From an uncultured archaeon (GTDB taxonomy: Archaea; Iainarchaeota; Iainarchaeia; Iainarchaeales; Iainarchaeaceae): a DNA stretch of 64,000 nt. The position numbers were made by a program, and so were the translations under genes. Under the pieces are notes generated by a model. It was not told the DNA's origin. It saw nothing but the letters and a program-made list of their open reading frames with translations, and ran no database searches. Of the stretch, positions 31 to 18,544 are shown one piece after another (the first letter of the stretch is position 1; every line of letters begins with the position of its first letter). The DNA is taken from the NCBI GenBank assembly GCA_964373815.1, contig CAYJWI010000001.1, positions 7,885 to 71,884 on the forward strand, written 5' to 3'.

Positions 31-1716
31 TTACTTCAAATAGTCGATGTTAAGGCCAAGAGTTTCCTTCAGTTCACGCAGCTGCTTTGCGGCTCTCTGT
101 ATGTTCGCGTTCCTGCTGTTTTTCACTATGAATTCGGTGTAACCTGTCGAGGCGTCGCTGTTTATCTTGCATATCGCGGTTTCGAGGTTGAAGCCGTTCC
201 TGTGCATTATCCTGCACTGCTCATAGAGCAGCCCTGACCTGTCCATACTGTCAATCCTGAATTTCACAAGGCCTAGGTTCCCGTTGTGCTTCCCGTACTC
301 CTTGAGGCTTTTTTCCACGTTCCTCCTCGCCTTTTCCGAGTACGCGAGCGAGAGCCAGCTCGTGTTCACCTGCTTGTGGTCCGAGTAAATTATTTTCACC
401 CTGTCGCCGGAATTGATCTTCGTCCAGAGGGGGAGGATTTTCCCGTTTATTTCCGCCTTGAACGCCCTTTCCGCCTTCTTCCCGTCCTTGAAAAACGCGA
501 AGTCGATTGCGGTTGACTCCGGTGGGAGCTCTATTACCTCTCCCTTGTCCGTGAACACTATCATCGTCCTGTTGTGGAAATCGAGGTTGAGCGTGCCTGC
601 AAGCTCCTCGCTGTCCGTAACTTCTGGCCTGCTTAGCTTCGAAAACATTTTTTCGAACCTTTTGAGCTGCGGGTTCTTGGCTTTTTTCCGGAGGAGCGCA
701 ACAACGCCTTCCCTGCCTATCTCATCCATTTCGCGGGAGAAAATGTATACCTTGAGCGGCTTCTTCGACGGCCCTATTACCTGGGTGTGCAGGGACTGGT
801 ATATGGCGTATTCCGGAATCGCGATGAGGTCCTTCATTTTTTTCGGCAGCGGCTTGAAAGCGGAGTGTATTTTCCCGAGGGCAGAGTAGCAGTCCTGTTC
901 CTGCGGGACTATTACCTTGAGTATCAGGGTGTCGTTGAGCTCGCTGAGCTCTTTGCTATTGACAAGCATCTTGCTGTGCACGGAATAAAACGATTTTCTC
1001 TTGCTGGAAAATTCCCAGTCCATTTCCGGGTGCTTCTTCTTCAGGATCTGGATTGCCTTCTTGAGGTCCGCCTCCTTCCTTTTCCTGTTTTTCTCTATTT
1101 CCTTCTTGAGCTTCTTGAATTTTTTCGGCTCGAGGGAGCTGAAGCAGAGGTCCTCCATTTCATACTTGAGGCCGTGCATGCCGAGCTTGTGCGTGAGCGG
1201 CACGTAAACCACGAGGGCATCGGCTGCGATTCTCATCTGCTTTTCCCTCGGGAGGTGCCTTAGGGTCCTCAGGTTGTGGAGCTTGTCGAAAAGCTTTATT
1301 ATCAGCACGCGCAAATCCTTCGAGGACGCCATTATTGTCTTGATTATGTTAGCGGTCGACTGCTCCTTCCTTGACCTGAAAGCCTCCCTGTCAAGGTTCG
1401 TCAGGCCTTCCACAAGGCCGTAAATTTCGGGGCCGAATTTCTCCCGAAGCTCCGCCCTGCTGATTTTGGTGTCCTCGATTATGTCATGGAGCAGCGCAGC
1501 CGAGACAATGACTTCGTCAAGGCCCCTATCGGCAAGCATTTTTGCAACCGCAAGAGGATGTATGAAGTAAGGCTCCCCGGATTCCCTGAACTGGCCTTCG
1601 TGCCACTTCCTCGAAAGCGCCGCCGCCTCATCGATGAGCCTTATGTCGGCCTTCGGGTGGCTTGCCTTCAAGGCAGATTTGAGTGCCGTAAGTTCCCTGC
1701 CGAAGCCGTTCTTCAT
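31..1716 (-). CDS. long RelA/SpoT homologue (HD hydrolase, synthetase-like region, TGS, ACT)
   Basis: 561-aa ORF. HD motifs HPLAVAKML..LLHDIIEDT and RVLIIKLFDKLHNLRTL. Synthetase-region motifs KRKSFYSVHSKM and YQSLHT. TGS-like VFTDKGEVIELPPESTAIDFAF. ACT-like C-terminus FRIDSMDRSGLL. Confidence 0.8.
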   Translation of the reverse strand: MKNGFGRELTALKSALKASHPKADIRLIDEAAALSRKWHEGQFRESGEPYFIHPLAVAKMLADRGLDEVIVSAALLHDIIEDTKISRAELREKFGPEIYGLVEGLTNLDREAFRSRKEQSTANIIKTIMASSKDLRVLIIKLFDKLHNLRTLRHLPREKQMRIAADALVVYVPLTHKLGMHGLKYEMEDLCFSSLEPKKFKKLKKEIEKNRKRKEADLKKAIQILKKKHPEMDWEFSSKRKSFYSVHSKMLVNSKELSELNDTLILKVIVPQEQDCYSALGKIHSAFKPLPKKMKDLIAIPEYAIYQSLHTQVIGPSKKPLKVYIFSREMDEIGREGVVALLRKKAKNPQLKRFEKMFSKLSRPEVTDSEELAGTLNLDFHNRTMIVFTDKGEVIELPPESTAIDFAFFKDGKKAERAFKAEINGKILPLWTKINSGDRVKIIYSDHKQVNTSWLSLAYSEKARRNVEKSLKEYGKHNGNLGLVKFRIDSMDRSGLLYEQCRIMHRNGFNLETAICKINSDASTGYTEFIVKNSRNANIQRAAKQLRELKETLGLNIDYLK

Positions 1717-6001: not shown

Positions 6002-6682
6002 TTACTTTTGCTTGAGGGAAAGCTCTCCGATTAGAAGCGCGAAGAAAATGTTAGAAATTATGTGCGTGAAGGAAAATGGCCAGACCAGCAAGAGCCCATC
6101 GCCGAAGTTCAGGATAACCTCGAAAATCAGCGTGCCGATAACCGTGTAGAGCACGAGCGTTCCTGTATCTGCCTTTCTTGCATATCCCGCCAAGCTTCCC
6201 GCAATAGCGCCCCCTATACCCTGCAAAAGGCTGTAGAGCCCGAAAGGCCCGCCTTCGAGGAAAATGTTTGAAAGAGGGTATGCGAGCAGGCCTATCAGAA
6301 CCCCGGCATTCACTCCATAAGAGAGCCCGGCAAAAACCGCGACAGGGATTATTGGCTCAATTGAAGTCAATGTCGGGAACTGCTTTATGAGCACCCTTCC
6401 AATGACTGCGGCAAGAAGAAGTATTACAATTTCCGCTTCGCCTATGGTTTTCTTTTTCGGCTTTCCGTATTTTTTTCCAGAACTTTGCGCATTGTGCTCC
6501 GCATGGCTTTCGCTGCCTCCATGCCCTGCGCCATGCCCACCATTGTCATGCCCTGCGTGCCCGCCGCCTTCGTGGCCATCATCCCCATGCCCCTCGTCCC
6601 CTTGGCCTTCATGCTCGTCCTCGAGGTACTCGCTCTCCTCGTTGGCCTCTTCCTTTTCTCCCTTTTGTCCATGGCCTGACAT
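6002..6682 (-). CDS. polytopic membrane protein with His/Gly/Asp-rich N-terminal tail
   Basis: Start taken at the internal MSGHGQ, which avoids overlap with the divergent gene. About 65 aa of HEGQGDEGHGDDGHEGGGHAGHDNGGHGAGHGG is followed by about 5 predicted TM helices, loosely like an ECF S-component. Confidence 0.55.
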   Translation of the reverse strand: MSGHGQKGEKEEANEESEYLEDEHEGQGDEGHGDDGHEGGGHAGHDNGGHGAGHGGSESHAEHNAQSSGKKYGKPKKKTIGEAEIVILLLAAVIGRVLIKQFPTLTSIEPIIPVAVFAGLSYGVNAGVLIGLLAYPLSNIFLEGGPFGLYSLLQGIGGAIAGSLAGYARKADTGTLVLYTVIGTLIFEVILNFGDGLLLVWPFSFTHIISNIFFALLIGELSLKQK

Positions 6683-6781
6683 GACTGATTCTTGGGTTGA
6701 GAAAGAATATAATCCTTGCCAATTCCGCACCGGCAATGAGGCATGCAAAGCGGCTTATCAACACTGGCTCGAAATAAATCC

Positions 6782-7573
6782 ATGGAATTCACTGAAAAGC
6801 ACGCGGAGCTGGTTGGCTTGCACTTTGGAGACGGCAGCTTCACTGTCCGCACCGGGACAAACCGATTGAGATTCCAGTTGAGGGGGGATGCGCACGAAGA
6901 CAGGGCGCATTATGAAGATTTCATAATCCCTTTATGCAATGAGCTAATCGGGATTCCACTATTTGGCAGAAGTCTTTGTACTGTATTTGACAGGAAACTC
7001 AACAGTTTTGGCGTCTGCGTCGAGAGTTGTCGAATTTTGGGATTCTTTCAAGCGCTTGGAATTCCAATAGGGGAAAAACATGAATTGCCTATTCCAGAAT
7101 GGATTAAAAGCAATAATGAATTCTCAAAGGCTTTTGTAAGGGGGCTGTTTGACACCGATGGAGGAATATATTATAAAAAAAACAACACGGCAAAAAGCCA
7201 GCTTAATACAGTAGGCATGCTTCACATATGTTCAACTTCAAAAGTGCTGATTTACGAGACTTCCGGAATTCTTTCACGTGTTGGCATCAAGCACTACATA
7301 AAGCATGGCATAAAGACCAACGGCGAGAGGGATTATTACAAAATCGAGGTTTACCGCCCACACCACAGGTCATTCCTCGAGGCTATAGGTTCCCACAATC
7401 CGAAACATTTGACAAAATTTTGGGTTGCCGAAAAATTCGGTTTTTGCCCTCCTAGAACGACCCTTGAACAGAGAAGGCAAATTTTAAAAGGTGATTTGAG
7501 CCCACTTTCATTTCACAGCGAGGGTACCGTAGCGGTCAACCGGGCTAGCTTGAGGTTCTTTGGTAGTAATTGA
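6782..7573 (+). CDS. free-standing double-motif LAGLIDADG homing endonuclease
   Basis: Two LAGLIDADG motifs, LVGLHFGDGSF and FVRGLFDTDGGIY, about 100 aa apart. Start taken at MEFTEK. The frame continues 56 nt into tRNA-Leu and stops at a TGA inside its intron. Confidence 0.75.
   Translation: MEFTEKHAELVGLHFGDGSFTVRTGTNRLRFQLRGDAHEDRAHYEDFIIPLCNELIGIPLFGRSLCTVFDRKLNSFGVCVESCRILGFFQALGIPIGEKHELPIPEWIKSNNEFSKAFVRGLFDTDGGIYYKKNNTAKSQLNTVGMLHICSTSKVLIYETSGILSRVGIKHYIKHGIKTNGERDYYKIEVYRPHHRSFLEAIGSHNPKHLTKFWVAEKFGFCPPRTTLEQRRQILKGDLSPLSFHSEGTVAVNRASLRFFGSN
7482..7489 (+). promoter_or_regulatory. candidate TATA box for tRNA-Leu
   Basis: TTTTAAAA lies 29-36 nt upstream of the mature tRNA 5' end, inside the endonuclease coding region. 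Confidence 0.3.
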
Positions 7574-8341: not shown

Positions 8342-8728
8342 CTAATTTGTTACAACAAGTTTTCCGCGGAACATTTTCATGCCGCAGTGGTATTCATAGG
8401 TTCCTGGTTTTTGGGGTGTGAATGTTGCCGTGTGCGGTTCGCCGTCCTTTGATACCATGTTTACATTGAAGGCCGGGATGAGCAGTTGCCTGCCGCAGCC
8501 GGAGCCCTTGTCTGCAGAGAAGATAAATTCCACCGGCTGGCCAGCCTTTACCGTGATTTGTGCATTGTCATAAAGCCCTGTATCTAGGGCTCGTACACTC
8601 ACTTTCTGCGCATCAGGGCTATTATCCGGAGTATAGCTTGCTTGTGGTTGTTGGCTTGAACCGGTTTGGCTTTGGGCGCACCCAATGAGCAGCAAGAGGA
8701 GCACTAATGGCACAATGACTCTTTTCAT
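8342..8728 (-). CDS. cupredoxin-domain lipoprotein
   Basis: Lipobox-like LLLLIGCAQS. C-terminal GTYEYHCGMKMFRGKLVV resembles cupredoxin copper-ligand spacing. Overlaps the multicopper oxidase gene by 4 nt. Confidence 0.7.
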   Translation of the reverse strand: MKRVIVPLVLLLLLIGCAQSQTGSSQQPQASYTPDNSPDAQKVSVRALDTGLYDNAQITVKAGQPVEFIFSADKGSGCGRQLLIPAFNVNMVSKDGEPHTATFTPQKPGTYEYHCGMKMFRGKLVVTN

Positions 8729-10299
8729 GTTTTATCATCTCCGTTGTCTATAACTTTTATCATACTCATCATTCCCGAACTGAGGTGTTCGGCGTTGTGG
8801 CAGTGTATCATCCAGTCTCCGGGGTTGGAGAAGTCAACCAAAAGGTCTACCGTGCTACCTTTTGGAATGAGGGCAGTGTCTTTCCACACGAGATTTTTAT
8901 TTGCCTGACCGTTCTCGTTTATCACAAGGAACCTGTTGCCATGAATATGTATTGGATGCTGCATCGGGTGGCTTGAAGCGCCAAGATTTTTGATGCGGAT
9001 CTTTTTCACGTCCCCTTTCTGTGCTGTCCTAAAGAAATCCATATTCTCTTCCTTTGTTTTTGCATCCCTAATAATCCACGTAATTTCCGAATTGGTGGTT
9101 ATTTCGTTTATTGGCCGCATTTCATCCTCCCACTCAATAGTATCCTCGGCATGGCCTGTCATACTGCCACTATGTCCCATGCGATCTAGCATCTTATCCA
9201 TTACTGGCCAGCGTATCAATAGCTCGTATTCAAAATCAGGTTCCTTGTCAAAATATGGGCTGAATTTTCCGATTTCTTCTTTTGCGGGCGTGTTTTCCTC
9301 AAGCAGTGCGTAATCTTCTTTTGTCTGTAAAGAAATTACAGATGGATTGGCATGAATCATGCCGATTTTTTCTTCCTCCGGTTTTCCACTGAGCATGAAA
9401 TAATCCCCAGCTTCTTCAAAAAAAACATCCACAATTGCCCTTTCAGACGGACCTATTGTGATGGAATTCGCAAAGAACGGCTCTGTGTAAAAACCCGCAT
9501 CAGAGCCAACCACCTTCAACTTTGTGTTGGTAATTCCAAACTTGAATGGCCTTGCGTTTGCTGCATTCAGCAAGTACAGCCTCAAAGTTTCTCCCGCGTT
9601 TGTATCCAACCTATACTCGGTTTTGCCGTTAACAAGAATTGTGTTTCCGAACCTGCCCATCACTGCAAAATTTGTCTCTTTTTCAGGAAACTCTGGCAAG
9701 CCATTCCCTTCAATAAGAATGTCATCCAAAACAATTACTTCTCCCCTAACCATATTATTAGTGCTATTTTTTGGCTCTACGAGTATGGTTCCGTAAAGCC
9801 CCAACTCTTGCTGCTTGTCTTCCCTCACATGAGGGTGGTACCAAAACAGACCAACATCAGGAAAGTCAAGCGTATACTCAAAAAAGTCTCCGGGCTTGAC
9901 TTCTGGTTGCGTGATGTCTGGGACACCGTCAAACCTGTTTTCCAGGCGCAAGCCATGCCAGTGAACTGTAGTTGGCTCCGGCAACTCGTTCTTGAAAATA
10001 ACTTTTATCTTAGAACTCTGTTCTACTTTGAGTATCGGGCCTGGCAATTGCCCATTATACGCATAACCTTCAAACTTTTTTCCGCCCACATTTTGCACCA
10101 CTTTAATAGCCGACAAGTGGAATGTATCGCCATTTTTAAGTGTGACCATCTTCTGCTCTTTGGCCATTGACAAAGAATCAAGTTCACTATTTGGCGGACC
10201 TTTGTTTGTCGGCAGTTGCAGGAAGAAAAAACCCGAAACAATCAAAACAACTGCAATTACAATAATTATCCAGTTACGCATTTCGCCACGATCCAACAT
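8725..10299 (-). CDS. multicopper oxidase
   Basis: Copper-binding motifs HWHGLR, HPMQHPIHIHG and HCHNAEHLSSGMM. N-terminal anchor helix. The start may be MRNWIII at 10281. Confidence 0.85.
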   Translation of the reverse strand: MLDRGEMRNWIIIVIAVVLIVSGFFFLQLPTNKGPPNSELDSLSMAKEQKMVTLKNGDTFHLSAIKVVQNVGGKKFEGYAYNGQLPGPILKVEQSSKIKVIFKNELPEPTTVHWHGLRLENRFDGVPDITQPEVKPGDFFEYTLDFPDVGLFWYHPHVREDKQQELGLYGTILVEPKNSTNNMVRGEVIVLDDILIEGNGLPEFPEKETNFAVMGRFGNTILVNGKTEYRLDTNAGETLRLYLLNAANARPFKFGITNTKLKVVGSDAGFYTEPFFANSITIGPSERAIVDVFFEEAGDYFMLSGKPEEEKIGMIHANPSVISLQTKEDYALLEENTPAKEEIGKFSPYFDKEPDFEYELLIRWPVMDKMLDRMGHSGSMTGHAEDTIEWEDEMRPINEITTNSEITWIIRDAKTKEENMDFFRTAQKGDVKKIRIKNLGASSHPMQHPIHIHGNRFLVINENGQANKNLVWKDTALIPKGSTVDLLVDFSNPGDWMIHCHNAEHLSSGMMSMIKVIDNGDDKT

Positions 10300-10489
10300 T
10301 TTTCTGTTCAGTCATATTTTTTTCCAATTGTAAAATCCTGTCTTCAAAACTCTTTTCATGTTTTTTCTTTACTTTCTTTTTGAATAATAAAACCAATGCA
10401 AGGATAAATATTAAAGCGGATAGTGGGATGATTGCAATCCCAAAATTGACACCCAAAAGGTGCTCTAAGTTAATTAACTTGCTGGGCAA
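10274..10489 (-). CDS. small single-TM protein (hypothetical)
   Basis: 71-aa ORF with one hydrophobic helix and a basic stretch KKKVKKKHEK. No homology recognised. Confidence 0.3.
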   Translation of the reverse strand: MPSKLINLEHLLGVNFGIAIIPLSALIFILALVLLFKKKVKKKHEKSFEDRILQLEKNMTEQKNVGSWRNA

Positions 10490-10527
10490 TTATTGTTTCC
10501 GCACCCATACTCTTCCACTCCAAAACT

Positions 10528-11118
10528 TTAGCCAAATGCCATTTTTATTTTGTCCCCGTCCCTTATGATATAGTTCTCGTATTGCATATTTTCAACGCCA
10601 TTAATGAGGAGACTCACTTTTCTAGGTTTTCCATCAGGGCACATGTCTCCGTTTTTCTTGTCCAGTATCACTTCTTGCGAGAAATTTCTTCCGATGCTTG
10701 ACATCATAGCTCCAAGAGTTATTTGTGATGGACTTGAAACACTGCCTTCGATATGGAAAAGGCTGTCGTCATGGAGGTGGAGCAAATTACTTCCAAAGTG
10801 CTGGCCCGAAGCAGGCTTTGGAAGGGCGACATTTTCCCCGCAAATGACCAATGTGGGAGTCGCATGCCAATGGACATTGCCAAGGGGAAATGATAAGCTT
10901 CCAGTGTCATAATTTGCTTGCTTGGACTTTGGAATGGACATGAAAAACCACGCAATCCCAAAGGCTACAAGGGCTATTACTGAATAAGTCAATATTTTGT
11001 TGAAAAGTTTTTTCTTTTCCCCGGCGTTGATCGCAATTTGCTTTGCTTCTCTTCTTGTCTCAAGCTTTATCTGCCTTCTCTCATGCTTTGAGAGTTGCTC
11101 TTCAACCAATTGATTCAC
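10528..11118 (-). CDS. membrane-anchored extracytoplasmic protein with His clusters
   Basis: 196-aa ORF with an N-terminal TM helix, then HWHATPTLVICGENV and LLHLHDDSLFHIEG. I recall this kind of domain next to DsbA or copper genes but cannot name the family. Confidence 0.5.
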   Translation of the reverse strand: MNQLVEEQLSKHERRQIKLETRREAKQIAINAGEKKKLFNKILTYSVIALVAFGIAWFFMSIPKSKQANYDTGSLSFPLGNVHWHATPTLVICGENVALPKPASGQHFGSNLLHLHDDSLFHIEGSVSSPSQITLGAMMSSIGRNFSQEVILDKKNGDMCPDGKPRKVSLLINGVENMQYENYIIRDGDKIKMAFG

Positions 11119-11578
11119 CTTCTTTCCTGAATGCGCCCAAATAATTGAGTGTGAACACTAGCAACCCTATGCTAATAAGCGTTATGAGCAAACTATACTG
11201 CGTGAGGAACACACTCACGCTAAGCGGCAGGAAAATCGCCCCGAGTGAAGCGCAGGCAGGGCATTGCGAAACAAAGAACAATGCAAGCGTGCCAGCTCCG
11301 CTGCTTCCGGCTCCCTTTACCTTCTCGTCCAATGCGCACGTTTTTGGCTGCCTCCAATTGTAAACCTGGAATGAAAGCGTGATTCCGAAGATAATGGAAA
11401 AAATAATGAACAAAAAACCGTTTTCCGGAGGTATTGTCGCAAGCCACACGCCAAAATTCTCTATTATTCCAAGCAACTGGGCGTAAACATAAATAATGGC
11501 AAAAATTATTGAAGAGGAAACCGCCAGGGCAAGGTACGAATGTTTCTTCAGTACTTCCAATAATTTCATTCCTGTCAT
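11102..11578 (-). CDS. 4-TM membrane protein with intramembrane CPxC motif (paralogue 1)
   Basis: 158-aa ORF. A Gly-rich segment GAGSSGAGTLALFF is followed by SQCPACASLGAIFLPL inside a predicted TM helix. Same architecture as 13501..13968 and 15394..15900. Confidence 0.6.
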   Translation of the reverse strand: MTGMKLLEVLKKHSYLALAVSSSIIFAIIYVYAQLLGIIENFGVWLATIPPENGFLFIIFSIIFGITLSFQVYNWRQPKTCALDEKVKGAGSSGAGTLALFFVSQCPACASLGAIFLPLSVSVFLTQYSLLITLISIGLLVFTLNYLGAFRKEGESIG

Positions 11579-11601
11579 GTTGCTTTCATTCCCGGTTTTG
11601 T

Positions 11602-12228
11602 CTAATGTAAATGGTCACTGTCCCCGCCGCAACCGTCCGAAAGGTTCCAAATCTCGGTCACTTGCTGGCCTGTAAAATTGCGGTTCTTTATAAAGTATTT
11701 TCCCAAGCCACCATATACATTCCATCGCCAGCACTTGCAGCAGCATGGGCCTTTTTCTTTTGAGTTTTGCATCGCATAGTCATATTCCTTTTGCTCTTCT
11801 GCAGATAATTGGATTGTATCATAATAGGAAGACAGCTTTTTTGCCAAGCCAGCCTCAATATCATACGGGTCCGAAGGAATCTCCGGGAATTGTTTGTACT
11901 TTTCAAGCCCTTTTACTTGTTCAGTATATCTATGCATACTCATTGCACTGCAGCAAGACCCCTGCAGCCTGGCATTGTCTGGCATGCTTGCAATGGAGTC
12001 TCGGTAAGAATTGGAACAGAAAGAGTTACCATTCCTGGAAAGATAATCAAACCTTGCAACAAGTGCATTTTCCCCATTTCCGTCCTGTGGCCCTTTATAT
12101 TGCGCTGCGGCCGTGGAATTCTTCGTTTCCTGCGGTAACGAAAAGTAGAAAAAAACTCCAATAGCAAGGGCAGAAATCATGACTACCGCTGCCAAAAAAG
12201 TTTTGTCGGTTGGATTCATGCACAACAT
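11602..12228 (-). CDS. secreted or anchored Cys-rich protein, PCYCGC-motif-like
   Basis: 208-aa ORF with an N-terminal helix and motifs GSCCSAMSMHRY, GPCCCKCWRW (compare the PCYCGC motif family) and DGCGGDSDH. Confidence 0.55.
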   Translation of the reverse strand: MLCMNPTDKTFLAAVVMISALAIGVFFYFSLPQETKNSTAAAQYKGPQDGNGENALVARFDYLSRNGNSFCSNSYRDSIASMPDNARLQGSCCSAMSMHRYTEQVKGLEKYKQFPEIPSDPYDIEAGLAKKLSSYYDTIQLSAEEQKEYDYAMQNSKEKGPCCCKCWRWNVYGGLGKYFIKNRNFTGQQVTEIWNLSDGCGGDSDHLH

Positions 12229-12294
12229 CTTTTTGCATTAGAGGGGGGTGAAAAGAGGGCACACCAAAGCAGTGCACCCTCTTAACTCATATTT

Positions 12295-13101
12295 TTACTT
12301 TAGGAGGCCATCGATTGCCGATTTGAGTACGGAGTATGGTTGCGCCCCCACAATCAACTGGCCCGTTCCGTCAGCCTTGCCTATTACAAAGCTCGGGGTG
12401 CCGGTAACTCCAATGCTTGACCCTTCATTGAAGTTCGCTTGGACAGCACTTGTATACTTGCCGGTGTCAAGGCAGGTATTGAATTGCGATGAGTTCAGGC
12501 CCAAGTCTTGCCCCCATTTTTTCACATCCTCTTTGGTAAGGTTTGAGATTGTCCCTTGGCCAAATTTTGCCTGTTCAGTGAAGATTTTGTCGTGCATTTC
12601 CCAATACTTCTGCTGGTCTCCCGCGCACCTTGCGGCTTCAGAATACACCGGCGCCATCGGGTGGAAATTTAGTGGAAAGTCCTTGTACACGAAAAGCACT
12701 TTTCCGGTTTCTATATACTCCTTGTCTAACTGAGCCTTCGAGTCATTGAACCATTTCCTGCAGAAAGGGCACTGATAATCAGAGTACTCGATTATTACAA
12801 TCGGCGCGTCCTGCTTACCCTGAACAGCTGCTGCCCCCTGCAATAGGCCCTTTATTTCCGTGGTTTGTTGTGCCGGTTGCGGGTTTGGTTGGGGAGTTGC
12901 GGCAACATTGCCTGCATTGCCAGAGTCTTGTGACGGTGCACCGCCCCCCCGGATTTCTGAAATTGTTTTTGTGAGACCTGAAAGGCTATTGCCTACCCCC
13001 GAACCTGCGGCAAATATGCTAACTGATAGTATTATTGCAGCAAACAGTATACTCACAGGCAAATACAGCGCCTCCGCCTCAGATTTTACGTGTTCGCTCA
13101 C
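12295..13101 (-). CDS. DsbA-like thiol:disulfide oxidoreductase (thioredoxin fold)
   Basis: N-terminal TM anchor, low-complexity linker, then YSDYQCPFCRKW and a DsbA-like helical insertion. Confidence 0.8.
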   Translation of the reverse strand: MSEHVKSEAEALYLPVSILFAAIILSVSIFAAGSGVGNSLSGLTKTISEIRGGGAPSQDSGNAGNVAATPQPNPQPAQQTTEIKGLLQGAAAVQGKQDAPIVIIEYSDYQCPFCRKWFNDSKAQLDKEYIETGKVLFVYKDFPLNFHPMAPVYSEAARCAGDQQKYWEMHDKIFTEQAKFGQGTISNLTKEDVKKWGQDLGLNSSQFNTCLDTGKYTSAVQANFNEGSSIGVTGTPSFVIGKADGTGQLIVGAQPYSVLKSAIDGLLK

Positions 13102-13163
13102 TCAAAATCACCACCAAATTTTTCTTTATTCATTTTTTAGACCTCCATGTTCTTTGTTTTTAT

Positions 13164-13466
13164 TTATTTCATGCAATTAATTGTACATTGAAGCGGCTGG
13201 CTGTCTTGGCTATTTTCAATAGGCGAAAAAAGAACAGTTGTTTGCTTTGAAAACAGTTTTTCTTCCGAGACTTCCGCCTGATAAGTATTTTGATTTGTTT
13301 TCAGAGCCAAAGTGACTGACCCACCAGTCTTGGAGAAAGTTTGCTTTTCTGATAAGAGAGCCAAGCCCATGAAAATGAAGAACCCGACAAAAAAAATCCC
13401 GAGGTACACGTAATTGCGTTCATCAGAGGCAGGATTCAAACTCATAATGTAACCATAATGTAACAT
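13164..13466 (-). CDS. hypothetical single-TM protein
   Basis: 100-aa ORF with one hydrophobic helix. No motif recognised. Confidence 0.3.
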   Translation of the reverse strand: MLHYGYIMSLNPASDERNYVYLGIFFVGFFIFMGLALLSEKQTFSKTGGSVTLALKTNQNTYQAEVSEEKLFSKQTTVLFSPIENSQDSQPLQCTINCMK

Positions 13467-13500
13467 AAGTATTTAAACGTATCTAAACTCCATTACCCGC

Positions 13501-13968
13501 ATGGTCGCGGAAAATAAACTGGCATATTTTTTGCATAAGCACAAGTTTATGGGCGGATTGCCGCTTTTGGCTTTTTTTATTGTGTTATTAGGCACTCCGA
13601 CGGCACTTATCCCTAACCCGTTTATCCATTACATCAGGATGACGCCGGTTACCTGGCTTGATTATTTTTTCCTTCTCACGACAGGCATTCTCCTTTCAGC
13701 CAATGTGATTGTTTTCCTTGAGAAAAAAACGAAAAAAGAGGGCGCAATATTCGGGGGCGGCTTTTTGGGTTTTTTGGCGTTTGCCTGCCCAATATGTAAC
13801 ATCCTATTGGTCAGCCTGCTTGGCGCAACTTTTATTTTGGAATTCATCGAGCCCCTAAGGCCGTTATTTGGCATCGCGTCAATTGTGATTCTCTTGGCTA
13901 CACTTTATTTACAACTGAGGCAGCCGACCTGCAACGAATGCATGATTGGCGGTCAAAGCACACAATGA
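13501..13968 (+). CDS. 4-TM membrane protein with intramembrane CPxC motif (paralogue 2)
   Basis: 155-aa ORF. GAIFGGGFLGFLAFACPICNILLVSLLGA plus a C-terminal CNEC. Confidence 0.6.
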   Translation: MVAENKLAYFLHKHKFMGGLPLLAFFIVLLGTPTALIPNPFIHYIRMTPVTWLDYFFLLTTGILLSANVIVFLEKKTKKEGAIFGGGFLGFLAFACPICNILLVSLLGATFILEFIEPLRPLFGIASIVILLATLYLQLRQPTCNECMIGGQSTQ

Positions 13969-13987
13969 AAAAGGCAGGCACATTTTT

Positions 13988-14697
13988 TCAAAATAAAATT
14001 GACATTAAATAAACAACTGGAAACAATATTGCCTGGTGCAAAAAATAAACCAAAAGGGAATTCTTCCCCAGTGCCTGCAAAAATCCGGCCGCCGAGTTTT
14101 TCGGCTCTTCAAGTTGGAATTTTCTTTCCGCACCTTTGTATAATGTATCGCCGATAAACAAACCAATGAGAACTACCCCAAACCACGGGAACACCGGGAA
14201 AAAATCCAATGTTGGTTGCGGAGCCGCAAATCCAAGCCAAACCAGCAATGGCTGGTTGGTGCTGCGCAAATCATAAAACAGCGGCAAGGCGATTAACACA
14301 AGGGCAAGTAGTGCACCCAACCGCTTTTTTCCGGCAAACGGGATTGAAAGTATTATCGAGGCGCCTATCAGGTGGAGGATGCCAAAGTAAATGAAATTCT
14401 CCCTGAAAAAATGAAGGTGAAAGCCGTTATCAGAAGGCCAAACCCGAAAACAACCGCCCCGCGCTTTAGGAATCGCTGGGCGTAGTCATTTCTGTGCTTG
14501 TGGCAGGTTATGCTCAGAGCAACGCCGACAAGCAACAGAAACAGGGTGGCAGTGGCCTTCTGGAGCAAGCCCCAGAACCCAGAATAAATGTCCCCTTGGA
14601 TAAATCCAAAATACCTCAAATCCCAGACAAAGTGGAAAACAACCATCATCATTACTGCCAGGCCGCGTCCAAAATCAATTTCCCAAAAGTGGTGCAT
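13988..14697 (-). pseudogene. DUF1624-like (heparan-alpha-glucosaminide N-acetyltransferase-like) membrane protein, split by a frameshift
   Basis: The N-terminal half (14368..14697, FGRGLAVMMMVVFHFVWDLRYFG) and the C-terminal half (13988..14320) are in different frames with a 47-nt gap. Together they make one protein of typical length. Confidence 0.5.
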
Positions 14698-14798
14698 TAA
14701 CCTGCCTTTTCTTTATTAAAAAGGATTTTCAGAGGTTACCCCGAAATCTCACCGGAAACCAAAAAGCAAAAATGAGCTAGGTGAACAATTATTTGGTT

Positions 14799-15167
14799 TT
14801 ATAGTTTGTTGAAGGCGTTAGATTCTGCCAGTTTTATGAGTGGAAGTATTGCTTTCCTGACTTTTTCGCCGTTGCGCGTGAGCGAGTATTCTACCCTCGG
14901 CGGCTTCTCAGAAAACGCTGTTCTGACGACCAAGTTGTGTTCTTCTAGCTCGCACAGCCTTTCAGCCAGAGATTTCTGCGTGATTCCGCCAATCCTTTTT
15001 AATAGGCCATTGAACCTGAGCGCGCCAAAGTTCCCGATTATTACTAGAATGCTCAGCGCCCACTTCTTGCTAAGAAAAGCAGTCTTTTCAAGTGGCTTTG
15101 GACAGTAGCCATTGCCCCTCATTCCACACTCGCTGTTCGTTACCAAACGTATACTGGTTTCCGGCAT
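14799..15167 (-). CDS. HxlR-family winged-helix transcriptional regulator
   Basis: CPKPLEKTAFLSKKWALSILVII..LRFNGLLKRIGGITQKSLAERLCELEEHNLV..EKPPRVEYSLT. Confidence 0.75.
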   Translation of the reverse strand: MPETSIRLVTNSECGMRGNGYCPKPLEKTAFLSKKWALSILVIIGNFGALRFNGLLKRIGGITQKSLAERLCELEEHNLVVRTAFSEKPPRVEYSLTRNGEKVRKAILPLIKLAESNAFNKL

Positions 15168-15245
15168 GAAACTGCCCCCCTTAAATTAATCAAGAACCAC
15201 TTAATAGTATACAAAATAAACCAATTAAAAATGGAGGTGTTTCAA

Positions 15246-15380
15246 ATGGACAAAACAAAATCCTGTTGCAGTGGAGGAGTATGCCAAGCCTGTGATTGCT
15301 GCATATGCATATGCACAAAAGAACTCAAAAAAGCACTTTCACCGCAAGCAAGAAAACTCTTACTTAAAGCACTCCAATGA
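15246..15380 (+). CDS. 44-aa cysteine-rich peptide (8 Cys in residues 7-23), not in the ORF track
   Basis: ATG is preceded by GGAGGTG at an 8-nt spacing. Translation is MDKTKSCCSGGVCQACDCCICICTKELKKALSPQARKLLLKALQ. The stop lies 13 nt before the CPxC paralogue 3 start, and the gene is divergent from the HxlR regulator. Confidence 0.5.
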   Translation: MDKTKSCCSGGVCQACDCCICICTKELKKALSPQARKLLLKALQ

Positions 15381-15393
15381 AGAGTGACGCCAA

Positions 15394-15900
15394 ATGATTG
15401 GAACCGAATCAAAATCAACTATTAATGCCATTGGCCTGGCACTCAAGTCCAGAAAACGCTTGGCTATAGGCATTATTTCAGCAATTGCAATGGCTTTTCT
15501 CTCCATTTACATTCCAGCGGCTATTAAGCTTGGAACCACAATTGAATCCCAAATTTCTCTTTTAACTTGGGAGAACATTTTACTCATAACCATTTTCTCG
15601 ATTTTGTTCGGGGTGTCAATCGCCCTTCACAGTTATGCAATGAGCTTAAAGAAAAACCATGGCAATATGAGCGTGACCCCGGTTGGAGGATTTGCCGGCA
15701 TCATAGGCGGGGTGTTTTCAGGGCCGATGTGCCCTACCTGCATAAGCACCATCATCAGCATATTAGGCCTCGGCAGCTCCACAGCCATTTTCATGCTCTC
15801 CCACAGGACGGAAATACTCGCACTAAGCGCACTTCTCATTATCACCTCGATTTATTTTGTAGGGAAAAAAGTAACACGTTTTTGCGACAAATGCAAATGA
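15394..15900 (+). CDS. 4-TM membrane protein with intramembrane CPxC motif (paralogue 3)
   Basis: 168-aa ORF. VGGFAGIIGGVFSGPMCPTCISTIISILGLG plus a C-terminal CDKC. Confidence 0.6.
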   Translation: MIGTESKSTINAIGLALKSRKRLAIGIISAIAMAFLSIYIPAAIKLGTTIESQISLLTWENILLITIFSILFGVSIALHSYAMSLKKNHGNMSVTPVGGFAGIIGGVFSGPMCPTCISTIISILGLGSSTAIFMLSHRTEILALSALLIITSIYFVGKKVTRFCDKCK

Positions 15901-16000
15901 AAAGACAGGCTTATCTATTTCTGAAGCTCTAGTCTGGAATCAGGCATTAAAGGCTCGTAAAGCGTTTTAAGGAGAATGGCACCCGTTTTAAACGGGTGAT

Positions 16001-16309
16001 TTGGCAATGGCGCTTGAAATAATTCTCACAATAATCTCCACATTGTTTTCGCTGGGGGCAATCTACTACTCGTTCATGCTTTCAAAGGAAACCAGCGGCG
16101 CAAAATACTGGATTTTTTTCCTAATAGCATCCGTAATGTTCGGAATAGCGCACCTGGCCTCAAAGGATTTCATGGGCTTTTCATCCGAAACCCAGTTTGT
16201 CGTCAAGGAGGTAGCTGAAATCGCAGGCGCATTCTCGCTGGCGTACGCTACTTATGGCTTGTATTCCTCTATGAAAAAAATCCGCGAAAAAATCGGCAAA
16301 GAACTTTAG
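16001..16309 (+). CDS. small 3-TM membrane protein (hypothetical)
   Basis: 102-aa hydrophobic ORF with a TTG start (or ATG at 16007). No motif recognised. Confidence 0.4.
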   Translation: MAMALEIILTIISTLFSLGAIYYSFMLSKETSGAKYWIFFLIASVMFGIAHLASKDFMGFSSETQFVVKEVAEIAGAFSLAYATYGLYSSMKKIREKIGKEL

Positions 16310-16322
16310 AGGAATGAACTAA

Positions 16323-16592
16323 ATGGACAAGACAATCCTCTTCTACTGGAGCAAAGGAGCCGAAACACGGGTCAAAATCCTAAATGCCGCCCACCAATGC
16401 AACAAAAACAAAGAGCCCTGCTTCATACAGCAAATCGCAGACAAACTAAAAATCAGCCATGTGGGCATAAAAAAACACGTCGACCTGCTGATAGAAAACG
16501 GATACCTCAAAGAAGTGAATCCAAAAGGGAAACCAGTATATCTTGAACTAACTCACAGTGGAAATGCAATACTTAAGGAATTCAAAAAATAG
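16323..16592 (+). CDS. small winged-helix DNA-binding protein (ArsR/MarR-like)
   Basis: 89-aa ORF. IQQIADKLKISHVGIKKHVDLLIENGYLKEVNPKGKPVYLELT. Confidence 0.6.
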   Translation: MDKTILFYWSKGAETRVKILNAAHQCNKNKEPCFIQQIADKLKISHVGIKKHVDLLIENGYLKEVNPKGKPVYLELTHSGNAILKEFKK

Positions 16593-16625: not shown

Positions 16626-16931
16626 TTAATTCATAAGAAGGAATTGCCATAATTTCTTTATAAAGAGAATTTTGTCAATGCAAAGAGGCGATTGCCGTGG
16701 GGCGTCTAGGCGTCCTTCGCTCTTGTCAAAAATGTTCCCGTCAGGAAAGCTCCCGACATATTCAACCTTCACCGTATCCCCTTCCTTTACCTTCACCAAT
16801 TCACCAACTCCTCCATTCGCATTCGCCCCCACATTCACTTCAGTTCCAGCTCCCTTGCCCTGCTCACTTGCCTGCTGCGAGCACCCGGCGAGAAGCAACG
16901 AAACAATGAGAAAGGACAGGATTTTGCGCAT
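16626..16931 (-). pseudogene. truncated FKBP-type peptidyl-prolyl isomerase lipoprotein
   Basis: Lipobox LLLAGCSQ and the FKBP N-terminal strand GDTVKVEYVGSFPDGNIFDKSEGR are present. Unrelated sequence follows, and the rest of the FKBP fold is absent in all frames. Confidence 0.4.
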
Positions 16932-16954
16932 GCACAAATCCAAACCCATTAAAT

Positions 16955-18544
16955 TCATGCTTGTTTTTTCGAAAAAACGGCGAAATCCCCGTATTCAAAG
17001 GCTTTCCCGAGGTTTAGGCCTTCGAGCGGGTAATTTTTCCTTGCCACCACGTAATCGACTTCGGGCAGGATTTGTGAAATGCATGCGGGGCAATTTCCTG
17101 CAACCGCCCTCTGCGCAAGCTCGTGCCTCGCGAGCAGTTGCGGGTAATACGGGTCATTTCCTGCTATGCGCAAATCATACGAAACATACCACTGCGATGC
17201 AGCATCGTAGGGGATTTTTTCCGCTATTTCAGCTACCTTTCCGCCATCCTCGAGAAGGAAAAGCGCAGTCTTCATTTCGGGGTCGAACTTCTTGAACCCG
17301 TATGCGAACGCGGTCTCTCCAGGTGTTATCTTCGAGCCTTCGCGCAGGTGGGTGAGCTCTGAAGAAGAGAAAAAGAGAATAAGTGAAACCAGCGCAATCG
17401 ATGCAACCGCGTGGCCAAAAAACTTCGGCCTCGATTCAGCCATGCGCGCAATTACTCCGGCGGAGATGAATAGTGCGCAGAACATGGAGAGCTCAATGAC
17501 CCTTCCCCCAAGCGCCCTGCCTGTCGCGCTCAGCAGCACTGCCAAAAGCGCGGAAATTATGAAAGATGAGAAAAGCAGCAGTTCCATTTTGCCGATTTTT
17601 TTTGAGAGCACGATGCCGCCAAAGGAGAAAATCCCCGTGGCAAAAACCAAGAGCCCTATCCATGGCGGGAAAACCGCGATGCTTTGCGCAAGGGATTGCA
17701 CCGTGAGCGGGTGCGCGGCTTCAGCCCCGAAGTTGGAGATGTATGGGAGGTAAGAGACAATGATTGCGGGAAGCGCAAGCAAACCCGAGAGGAAAAGGAT
17801 TGCGGTTGCCCTAAATTCGGAAAAAATCACCCCGCGCAAAACGAAAAAAATCCCCGCATAAAAGGCCACTCCCGGGTGCGCTGCCACTAGGCTTGGGAAA
17901 AAGATATACGCGAGAGCGCTCCTGTTTTCAACCGCGAGAAAAGTAGCGAGGAAGAAAACCGACGCCATCATGAAGGTGTACTGCCCCCAGTACATGTTCT
18001 GGAAAACTATTTTCGAGCCAATGAAAAGCGCGAGGGAAACGATTCCTGCTTTCTCGCCCCAAAGATGTTTTGTGATGCAGTACACAAGGGTTGCCGAGAG
18101 CAAAGCGAACAAGGCCCCGAGGCCCCACACAATGGCATTGCTGGGGATTGCGGGCAGGAGGTCGATTAGCATTTTCGCGAAAACAGGGAAGCCTATCTGG
18201 TACCTGTACCCGAGCTTCGAGAACGGCTCATAGGTTTGCGGCATTTTGTCGCCTATCGCAAGGCTGCTTATGTGCGCTGCGGGGTCGGCGCTCGCGTCCA
18301 CAAAAGGGTGAATTAAAACATAGGGGTATGCAGAGAGCGCTGCGATTAAAATGCACAGCAATGCCGCCGGCATGCTTATTTGCGGCAATTTGATTTCGTA
18401 TTTGCGGATTGCAAAAAACGAGGCCGCGAGCGAAATTATCGCGATTGCCCATGAAACCCTAGAAAAGTAGAGGCTCCAGAGGGAGAGCAATGTGGCGATT
18501 GAAATGAACGCGAGCACGAAGGCCAGCGCTTTGCCGTTATTCAC
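16955..18544 (-). CDS. polytopic GT-C-type glycosyltransferase (PMT/ArnT-like)
   Basis: 529-aa ORF with about 12 hydrophobic helices and a soluble C-terminal domain. Overlaps the upstream GT2 gene by 8 nt. The family call is by architecture and context. Confidence 0.55.
   Translation of the reverse strand: MNNGKALAFVLAFISIATLLSLWSLYFSRVSWAIAIISLAASFFAIRKYEIKLPQISMPAALLCILIAALSAYPYVLIHPFVDASADPAAHISSLAIGDKMPQTYEPFSKLGYRYQIGFPVFAKMLIDLLPAIPSNAIVWGLGALFALLSATLVYCITKHLWGEKAGIVSLALFIGSKIVFQNMYWGQYTFMMASVFFLATFLAVENRSALAYIFFPSLVAAHPGVAFYAGIFFVLRGVIFSEFRATAILFLSGLLALPAIIVSYLPYISNFGAEAAHPLTVQSLAQSIAVFPPWIGLLVFATGIFSFGGIVLSKKIGKMELLLFSSFIISALLAVLLSATGRALGGRVIELSMFCALFISAGVIARMAESRPKFFGHAVASIALVSLILFFSSSELTHLREGSKITPGETAFAYGFKKFDPEMKTALFLLEDGGKVAEIAEKIPYDAASQWYVSYDLRIAGNDPYYPQLLARHELAQRAVAGNCPACISQILPEVDYVVARKNYPLEGLNLGKAFEYGDFAVFSKKQA

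Follow-up and report, generated by a model that had tools for sequence, protein, structure and literature searches.

Three small membrane proteins, P1, P2 and P3, are encoded in an island at positions 8342–16592 of the window, by which we mean the whole 64-kb stretch of contig CAYJWI010000001.1 of an uncultured and tiny, DPANN-like archaeon of the Iainarchaeales that was analysed. These proteins, each with four transmembrane (TM) helices, and a DsbA-like oxidoreductase encoded upstream of P1 are the subject of this report. P1 (11102–11578, minus strand) carries the sequence SQCPACASLG; P2 (13501–13968, plus strand) carries FACPICNILL and a C-terminal CNEC; and P3 (15394–15900, plus strand) carries GPMCPTCISTI and a C-terminal CDKC. 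P1 lies in a run of minus-strand genes which, in the order of transcription, encode orf100, an anchored protein of 100 aa (13164–13466) whose C-terminal CxxxC is conserved and which is found upstream of the DsbA-like gene in 12 loci; the membrane-anchored DsbA-like oxidoreductase of the Thioredoxin_4 family with a CPFC motif (12295–13101, E 2e-33); a Cys-rich anchored protein of 208 aa with a GPCCCKCW motif (11602–12228); P1 itself; an anchored extracytoplasmic His-cluster protein, H196 (10528–11118); a three-domain multicopper oxidase of the CueO/laccase type with an N-terminal signal anchor, recognized by profile searches (8725–10299); and a Cupredoxin_1 lipoprotein with the lipobox LIGC (8342–8728, profile E 2e-14). 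An HxlR-family regulator (14799–15167, minus strand, E 6e-21) is divergent from P3. The map of open reading frames (ORFs) and the profile searches place these genes, and describe their content, as a first-pass annotation of this DNA had done, labels aside.

Two of those labels have to be withdrawn. The Cys-rich 208-aa protein had been called PCYCGC-like, but it matches no Pfam family at E ≤ 1, PCYCGC (PF13798) included, and only the GPCCCKCW motif remains of the likeness. An 89-aa protein at the right end of the island had been called ArsR-like and is a generic winged-helix protein whose best match is HTH_5 at E 0.06. The His-cluster protein has conserved HxH, HxHxD and HxE residues and a conserved Cys160; it belongs to no Pfam or NCBIfam family, and a profile search of the PDB returned noise only. 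Pfam and NCBIfam profile searches found no DsbB, VKOR or CcdA among the island genes, which agrees with the first-pass annotation, where no DsbB, VKOR or CcdA/DsbD had been recognized in the island. Homologues of CcdA, DsbD-like proteins, TlpA, MerA and MerP were not found in the 64-kb window, nor were homologues of the CcdA-like proteins encoded in related loci described below.

P1, P2 and P3 are roughly 155–168 aa long and all have a CxxC motif near the middle of the membrane. They had been proposed to be paralogues, and their homology is borne out at two levels. In pairwise BLASTP, P1 and P3 match at E 1e-6 and P2 and P3 at E 0.002, with P1–P2 undetected. When alignments of the families are compared by hhalign, all three pairs match over their full length: P3–P1 at 99.3% and E 1e-20, P3–P2 at 97.6% and E 4e-12, and P1–P2 at 94.4% and E 9e-8. 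The motifs quoted for them are also exact. These alignments leave no ambiguity that the three belong, as divergent members, to a single superfamily that had not been described before. P1, P2 and P3 all stay below the curated cut-offs of Pfam and NCBIfam, the family members are all named 'hypothetical protein' at their source, and no description of the family was found in the literature on MerT-like superfamilies, archaeal DsbA partners and PCYCGC. A word-index homologue search gave 125 clusters for P1, 75 for P2 and 3 proteins for P3; an exhaustive HMMER search for P3 gave 236 cluster representatives, and a metagenome scan with a narrower, bacterial P2 alignment gave 419 relatives. Among the longer members checked for domain fusions, only a zinc-ribbon-like tail appeared (P0278). 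A stringent scan of the ORFs of the 64 kb, requiring several hydrophobic segments with a CxxC inside one of them, returned P1 and P2 only.

The membrane cysteines are invariant among the homologues in every subfamily. In the P1 family (43-sequence alignment) the invariant residues are C81, within QPKTC, and C106, P107 and C109. In the P2 family R46, C96 and C99 are invariant, P97 and N100 are nearly so, and TM4 is followed by either a single Cys or a CxxC. The CxxC of TM3 does not vary in the P3 family, and at least 90% of its members have a second CxxC at the C-terminus, about 49–51 residues away. The first-pass annotation had given the shared motif as CPxC. The residues it quoted are present and the CxxC is constant, but members of the P3 subfamily do not conserve the proline, and CASC is what they read most often; therefore, the defining motif is CxxC rather than CPxC. 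All three families also have a motif in the outside loop after TM1, which reads QVLGN..N..VW, PTAxIPNP..RMTP or IPGN..FQLS.

Topology was taken from family-averaged hydropathy and counts of lysine plus arginine, that is, from the positive-inside rule only. The counts per sequence are 2.1–4.2 at the N-terminus, 2.5–3.5 in the TM2–TM3 loop and 1.7–3.5 at the C-terminus, and 0.05–1.3 in the TM1–TM2 and TM3–TM4 loops, which are accordingly placed outside. In all three families, the N-terminus, the TM2–TM3 loop and the C-terminus are thus predicted to be cytoplasmic. The CxxC is 10–17 residues into a hydrophobic segment of 26–32 residues, i.e., near mid-membrane. Since the topology and the position of the CxxC in its segment both point this way, the predicted design of the family is a mid-membrane CxxC combined with one or more cytoplasmic cysteines. 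In the AlphaFold2 model of P2 (predicted local distance difference test, pLDDT, 80.5), the helix breaks exactly at CPICN. Foldseek searches of the PDB with the P1 and P2 models gave best E-values of 6 and 1.3, respectively, with TM-scores of about 0.3 or lower; they made no fold link to DsbB, VKOR, CcdA or MerF, the last of which is no more than a hairpin, and matched no MerT structure. A P2-family profile search of PDB sequences had no match at E ≤ 10.

No characterized family with an unrelated role was matched, and the only resemblance to a characterized family is to MerT, a thiol-based soft-metal transporter. P2 scores 21.1 bits (E 3e-4) against Pfam MerT (PF02411), which has a cut-off of 32.9, and 21.4 bits against NCBIfam MerT (NF010314), which has a cut-off of 150; P1 and P3 match neither. 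Pfam MerT is matched by 13 of 46 P2-family members, and no other family recurs. The P2 family was then aligned by hhalign to five authentic MerT sequences from annotated plasmids, which are 44–100% identical to the Tn501-type sequence. The match is at 93.6%, E 2e-7, over 63–64 columns, with P2 residues 79–142 on MerT 7–73. It spans the Gly-rich lead, the Cys pair, an 'EP(Y/L)RP' turn and the following helix, and stops just before the cytoplasmic cysteines of both proteins. A reversed MerT alignment gave E 0.82 and the best of 20 column-shuffled ones gave E 0.026, so the similarity is not one of hydrophobic composition. P3 aligns to MerT in the same register, weakly, at E 1e-3. For P2, these alignments show the C-terminal hairpin (TM3–TM4) as distantly homologous to the TM1–TM2 hairpin of MerT.

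MerT and this family have in common the Gly-rich lead into a membrane Cys pair, the 'EP.RP' turn and the second helix, followed by basic residues and then by cysteines. By the positive-inside rule only, this second cysteine site, which is a CxxC in P3, a CxxC or single Cys in P2 and Cys81 in P1, is predicted to be cytoplasmic, a position that would correspond to that of the second pair of MerT. In both systems the gene adjoins one for an extracytoplasmic CxxC protein, MerP there and the DsbA-like protein here. MerT has a vicinal CC in the first of three TM helices, whereas P1–P3 have a CxxC in the third of four; their hairpin is the C-terminal half of the protein, preceded by a conserved N-terminal hairpin with its outside loop motif, and the third MerT helix is missing. 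In P1 there is a single cytoplasmic Cys (Cys81), placed before the hairpin, whereas the MerT pair comes after it. The window is also without merA, merP and merR, and a search of it for homologues of MerA, MerP and MerT found none.

P1 neighbourhoods were collected with the P1 alignment from a scan in which each GTDB species had one genome; this gave 48 loci, which with the window and two further loci makes 51. The scan loci are all archaeal and belong to Aenigmatarchaeota, Iainarchaeota/Diapherotrites, Woesearchaeota, AR10, a Nitrosotenuis and another thaumarchaeon. Of the loci, 47 have sufficient sequence before P1, and in 29 of these, from several archaeal phyla, the gene directly upstream of P1 on its strand is DsbA-like, if the Cys-rich gene is allowed in between; the gaps are often 10–70 bp. 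The Cys-rich 208-aa gene itself is found in only 4 of 51 loci by ORF clustering and is an optional insert. The His-cluster gene is directly downstream of P1 in 18 of 45 loci and within 5 kb in 23 of 51. The same 5 kb includes P2 in 9 of the 51, a multicopper oxidase in 7, a cupredoxin in 6 and a P1B-ATPase in 7, and in several loci DsbA, P1, the His-cluster protein, P2, multicopper oxidase and cupredoxin form one co-directional cluster. Given the frequency of the DsbA–P1 adjacency against the lower counts of the copper genes, the DsbA–P1 pair is the conserved core, the His-cluster protein is a frequent third member and the copper genes are frequent accessories. The pair is also carried by complete genomes (CP010424.1 of AR10 and CP066683.1 of Woesearchaeota). 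About a dozen loci have P1 alone, in a conserved housekeeping context beside an ABC-F gene.

The DsbA-like protein is a member of the DsbA/Thioredoxin_4 group, with 116 bits against PF13462 and 64 bits against PF01323. Its CPFC and the cis-Pro loop (G-T-P) are conserved in 32 homologues. Its closest PDB relatives are 4PWO/4PWP, named 'DsbA', and 7UNN/7UNO, at E about 4e-21 to 3e-19, and the aligned 4PWP/4PWO sequences share the CPFC. It matches BdbD at E 8e-13 and ScsC proteins at E 4e-4 to 6e-6. The 102-aa and 89-aa pair at the right end of the window's island (16001–16592, plus strand; a membrane protein followed by the winged-helix protein) sits in relatives divergently upstream of the orf100–DsbA–P1 operon (8–9 loci). 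In a nanohaloarchaeal locus (L146, 4110–6399), an HxlR gene is followed divergently by a DsbA-like gene, the gene of a 176-aa superfamily member that has CASC and a Cys at its C-terminus, and finally a P2-like gene; beside the HxlR gene, two small YgaP-like_TM proteins are encoded.

The contexts of P2 and P3 differ in detail. Among 80 bacterial P2 loci kept from the 419 metagenome relatives, the recurrent neighbours are BlaI/CopY-type repressors (17) together with M56 peptidases (11), TlpA/ResA-type thioredoxins (16) together with CcdA (13), DUF305 proteins (10), DoxX–Rieske fusions (7) and multicopper oxidases (3). P2 relatives are also present on 38 actinobacterial plasmids, annotated as hypothetical in those listed. 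In five plasmids examined, P2 lies in metal-resistance islands, among genes for a heavy-metal P-type ATPase, HMA, CsoR-type (metal-sensitive) and ArsR regulators, DUF305, a copper-binding four-helix bundle, a multicopper-oxidase fragment and rhodanese, and in four of these five a P-type ATPase is within 6 kb of P2. In a Solirubrobacteraceae metagenome-assembled genome (L007, 3288–7980), a P2 relative comes directly after CcmH–CcmF, near a 677-aa fusion protein with Redoxin, SCO1/SenC and AhpC-TSA matches, and with DUF305 and COX3 downstream; this suggests a link of P2 to cytochrome c or cuproenzyme maturation. P3 is divergently paired with HxlR in the window and in L001, L052 and L058. In L001 and L143/L144 a CcdA-like protein of about 280 aa is encoded 2–7 bp downstream of P3, and the L143 genes are ResA-like, ArsR, P3, CcdA-like, glutaredoxin-like and an NAD(P)H disulfide reductase. 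The last of these was considered as MerA, but it falls below the MerA cut-off and looks like a relative of dihydrolipoamide or mycothione reductase. A compact archaeal mer operon does converge on the P3–CcdA-like pair of L001 (5810–8262). It encodes an ArsR-type regulator, MerA (480 bits against a TIGR02053 cut-off of 454), a MerT-like protein and an anchored, MerP-like HMA protein; the MerT-like protein is of 116 aa with CC motifs, so this operon has a MerT-like gene of its own beside the P3 relative. The association with DsbA or copper genes thus reaches well beyond this genome, into DPANN archaea, Thaumarchaeota, Nanohaloarchaea and actinobacterial plasmids, and it is well supported that the family works with CxxC proteins outside the cytoplasm, in gene contexts of copper, soft metals and thiol stress.

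Other known systems bear partial resemblance to this one. CcdA, DsbD and the ScsB–ScsC couple resemble it in having membrane-embedded cysteines, which would connect the cytoplasm with a DsbA-like CP(Y/F)C protein on the outside, and in belonging to a copper-stress context (PMC10907172). They have 6–8 TM helices, however, whereas P1–P3 have four and no inverted repeat; no match was found to CcdA/DsbD_TM (PF02683), a six-TM inverted repeat with one Cys in each of two PC..P motifs, and true CcdA-like genes are found together with the P2 and P3 relatives, which do not take their place. The Salmonella operon scsABCD encodes ScsA, a small uncharacterized protein, possibly of the inner membrane, for which a CX2C within the membrane is predicted; it is copper-induced and encoded with Dsb-like proteins (PMC10907172). 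It can be likened to P1–P3 by description only, being predicted to have 2 TM helices and a lipobox. P1B-type ATPases have a Cys-Pro-x(Cys) at a mid-membrane helix break, a proposed Cu(I) ligand, but the analogy is at the level of the motif only: P1–P3 have neither homology to them nor ATPase domains, and the P3 subfamily does not keep the proline. P1–P3 do not qualify as members of MerT (by cut-offs, CC motif, three-TM layout and mer operon), DsbB, VKOR or CcdA, and the membrane component is a new family. Its pairing with an extracytoplasmic CxxC protein is a known arrangement, as in MerP/MerT, DsbA/DsbB and ScsC/ScsB.

The first-pass annotation had offered P1–P3 either as the missing redox partner of the DsbA-like protein or as a thiol-based step in Cu(I) handling. 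Both possibilities gain support from the data above. The proteins are most likely cysteine relays across the membrane, of the MerT kind, for extracytoplasmic CxxC partners, and the choice of cargo, Cu(I) or Hg(II) on the one hand and reducing equivalents on the other, stands at roughly even odds. We tentatively lean, with somewhat less than even confidence, towards a MerT-style trans-membrane thiolate relay that carries metal, most likely Cu(I) and possibly Hg(II). In such a relay, the mid-membrane CxxC at the helix break in TM3 would bind a thiophilic cation and exchange it on the inside with the cytoplasmic cysteines (for P1, Cys81; for P2 and P3, the Cys or CxxC at the C-terminus) and on the outside with anchored partner proteins. 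The dedicated outside partner of P1 would be the DsbA-like CPFC protein, which might be a MerP-like or ScsC-like Cu(I)-binding protein that hands off the metal, or else an enzyme that holds the thiols of the relay at the redox state they need. Copper would be handled further downstream by the His-cluster protein, the multicopper oxidase and the cupredoxin. The homology of the three proteins, the link of P2 to MerT and the conservation of cysteines and gene neighbourhoods are demonstrated, and from these data we infer the topology, the cargo, the direction of transfer and a physical DsbA–P1 interaction. What favours metal is that MerT is the only homology to a characterized family, that P2 has copper contexts, including plasmid islands with no annotated thioredoxin-fold neighbour, that one P3 relative adjoins a genuine mer operon and that DsbA-like proteins, the ScsC proteins, have been reported to bind Cu(I) very tightly, with sub-picomolar affinity (PMC8900818; reviewed in PMC10907172).

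A number of observations weigh against metal as the cargo. The scores of P2 against the MerT profiles are well below the cut-offs, and P1 has no direct similarity to MerT in hhalign, being linked to it through P3 by transitivity only. The AlphaFold2 model of P1 (pLDDT 73) is unreliable around residues 82–113, i.e., around the cysteines. The strongest neighbours are thiol-disulfide enzymes and not metallochaperones: the DsbA-like protein for P1, TlpA/ResA and CcdA for bacterial P2, and CcdA-like, glutaredoxin and pyridine-nucleotide disulfide reductase proteins for P3. Some 12 P1 loci lack both DsbA-like and copper genes in their vicinity. Import of Cu(I) has no obvious benefit if there is no cytoplasmic sink for it; the window has no MerA, and its scanned ORFs showed no P1B-ATPase homologue. 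Alternatively, reducing equivalents and not metal might be passed between cytoplasmic thiol systems and extracytoplasmic thioredoxin-fold proteins, by way of the cytoplasmic Cys and the mid-membrane CxxC, a possibility that we rate a little below that of metal. For P1, the couple with the DsbA-like protein would then correspond to ScsB/DsbD with ScsC/DsbC, as a thiol-repair couple for copper stress on a MerT-like scaffold. The frequent same-strand position of the DsbA-like gene directly upstream of P1 fits well, as do the gene order in L146, where HxlR, DsbA-like, superfamily member and P2-like genes follow one another, and the placing of bacterial P2 next to TlpA/ResA–CcdA and CcmH/CcmF. The L143 genes would together form a complete reducing route. 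Several characterized HxlR-family regulators sense thiol or electrophile stress, and regulators of this family are found in the family loci. The copper-induced Scs systems are a precedent (PMC10907172). It counts against transfer of reducing equivalents, however, that CcdA-like genes in the same operons would make a second conduit for reductant look redundant, that in the five plasmids examined the 6 kb around P2 include no annotated thioredoxin-fold gene, that the sole detectable homology is to a metal transporter and that P1 has a single cytoplasmic cysteine. The subfamilies may also have diverged in cargo, P1 towards redox and P2 towards metal.

If the DsbA-like protein is an oxidizing enzyme, P1 might instead re-oxidize it, as an analogue of DsbB or VKOR that makes disulfides de novo with a quinone or with some other acceptor, for instance Cu(II) that the neighbouring multicopper oxidase recycles. 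P1 does resemble DsbB/BdbC and VKOR in being a small 4-TM protein with a CxxC encoded beside a DsbA-type gene; BdbC genes and, in some actinobacteria, VKOR genes adjoin DsbA-type genes in the same way. Among its named solved relatives, the DsbA-like protein is nearer to the oxidase BdbD than to ScsC, and the co-directional clusters that run from DsbA to cupredoxin could serve such a pathway. TsdA of Corynebacterium diphtheriae is a CPFC enzyme with no known re-oxidation partner, in an organism reported to have no VKOR homologue (PMC9974433). Identity with DsbB or VKOR, however, is contradicted by their essential cysteines, which form two periplasmic pairs, whereas those of P1–P3 are mid-membrane and, for the conserved extra Cys of P1, predicted to be cytoplasmic. 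No sequence or fold similarity joins them either: P1–P3 do not match DsbB (PF02600) in Pfam or NCBIfam at E ≤ 1, the P1 and P2 models have no Foldseek match to DsbB structures, nothing points to a quinone site, and neither sequence nor fold matches VKOR (PF07884), which has a CxxC at the luminal end of TM4 and a Cys pair in a loop. Only 7 of 51 loci have a multicopper oxidase in the vicinity, and to our knowledge DPANN archaea generally lack quinone synthesis. We regard such an analogue as distinctly improbable. Somewhat better, although still rather unlikely, is that P1 is a third class of DsbA membrane partner, independent of quinones and recruited from a MerT-like scaffold in archaea without DsbB, VKOR and quinones; electrons would then leave through cytoplasmic Cys81, or pass to O2 by way of copper and the co-encoded multicopper oxidase. 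Least probable of all, with a very slim chance, is a relay or transporter of sulfane sulfur (persulfide) or selenium tied to rhodanese or DsrE sulfur-transfer proteins. Rhodanese genes are near family members in L005, on a Rubrobacter plasmid (where the rhodanese gene and P2 overlap by 4 bp) and on a Rhodococcus plasmid. Genes of the DsrE and YgaP-like types are also nearby, and there are weak matches of CcdA-like neighbours to TsoB, a selenoprotein that fuses rhodanese and DsbD, and of their regulators to TsoR. Such neighbours are sporadic, however, the TsoB and TsoR matches are far below curated cut-offs, and nothing in the window itself points to sulfur metabolism.

Whichever cargo applies, the distant relation to MerT and the usual adjacency to DsbA make the P1–P3 family a candidate for the missing membrane partner in thiol or copper handling. 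Many archaea and some Gram-positives have no DsbB or VKOR to recycle their DsbA-type enzymes, and the DsbA–P1 pair is a concrete candidate for how this is done. In C. diphtheriae the re-oxidation partners of the DsbA-type enzymes are unknown and there is no VKOR homologue; its TsdA is a membrane-tethered CPFC oxidoreductase described as 'not primarily an oxidizer' (PMC9974433). If related bacterial proteins do the same job, the family could bear on the recycling of MdbA and TsdA in that organism (PMC9974433). If metal is carried, the cysteine-relay design of MerT may extend from mercury to copper, as is suggested by the presence of the family in copper-resistance islands of archaea and of actinobacterial plasmids. 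Either outcome would provide a new curated family and an annotation for hundreds of 'hypothetical proteins' in metal-resistance islands.

The island stands out in composition, as the first-pass annotation had noted by eye in calling it A+T-rich. Its GC content is 0.440 compared to 0.499 in the rest of the window, and it is the lowest-GC segment of 8.25 kb in the window, with a z of about −4.3 relative to non-overlapping windows. GC at third codon positions is also lower, 0.45–0.55 in island genes and 0.54–0.73 in flanking genes. Archaeal housekeeping functions are encoded on both flanks by profile searches. A relative of the island in L002 has 89% nucleotide identity and another flanking context. 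Since low GC at all and at third codon positions goes together with close relatives in differing flanking contexts, the island was probably acquired horizontally. tRNA genes and flanking direct or att-like repeats were sought at the island ends and none were found. In L004 (11576–16462), another close relative, the cupredoxin is followed by phage-tail-like genes (Phage_tube_2 and PhageMin_Tail), with a YHS/HMA P1B-ATPase on the opposite side, an arrangement that hints that the island travels with mobile elements. Near the left border of the island in the window is a free-standing ORF resembling a LAGLIDADG_3 homing endonuclease (6743–7573, plus strand, E 7e-12), which may be a mobile-element remnant. 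At the right edge of the low-GC region, a lipoprotein ORF (16626–16958, minus strand) matches the first 28 positions of FKBP_C only and is probably a truncated gene.

Between P2 and the HxlR gene lies a gene for an HGSNAT/DUF1624 acyltransferase (13988–14697, minus strand). It is split into two ORFs, 13988–14320 and 14368–14697, which match HGSNAT_cat/DUF1624 profile positions 2–94 and 127–221, and because of this split it is a probable pseudogene. The two ORFs had to be considered as a DsbB-like gene, and the acyltransferase match rules that out. An intact copy is present in L004 and intact or similar copies are present in L021, L022 and L028, as well as beside a P2 relative on a Rubrobacter marinus plasmid.

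A few other features of the window may be mentioned. About 1.6 kb from the island border, a membrane protein with a weak DUF6580 match (6002–6748, minus strand) has an N-terminal tail rich in His, Gly, Glu and Asp (HEGQGDEGHGDDGHEGGGHAGHDNGGHGAGHGG...), and judging from this composition, it could be a further metal-binding or transport protein. Near the left end of the window (31–1716, minus strand) a RelA/SpoT-type protein with HD_4, RelA_SpoT and TGS domains is encoded, which is unusual for archaea. Within the island, a 19-nt direct repeat, ACTCTTTTCATGTTTT(A/T)TC, occurs at 8718–8736 and 10349–10367 with 95% identity. The first copy overlaps the start codon of the cupredoxin gene and the second is about 50 nt upstream of the multicopper-oxidase start; the repeat may be due to chance, or it may be an initiation or regulatory element that the two genes share.

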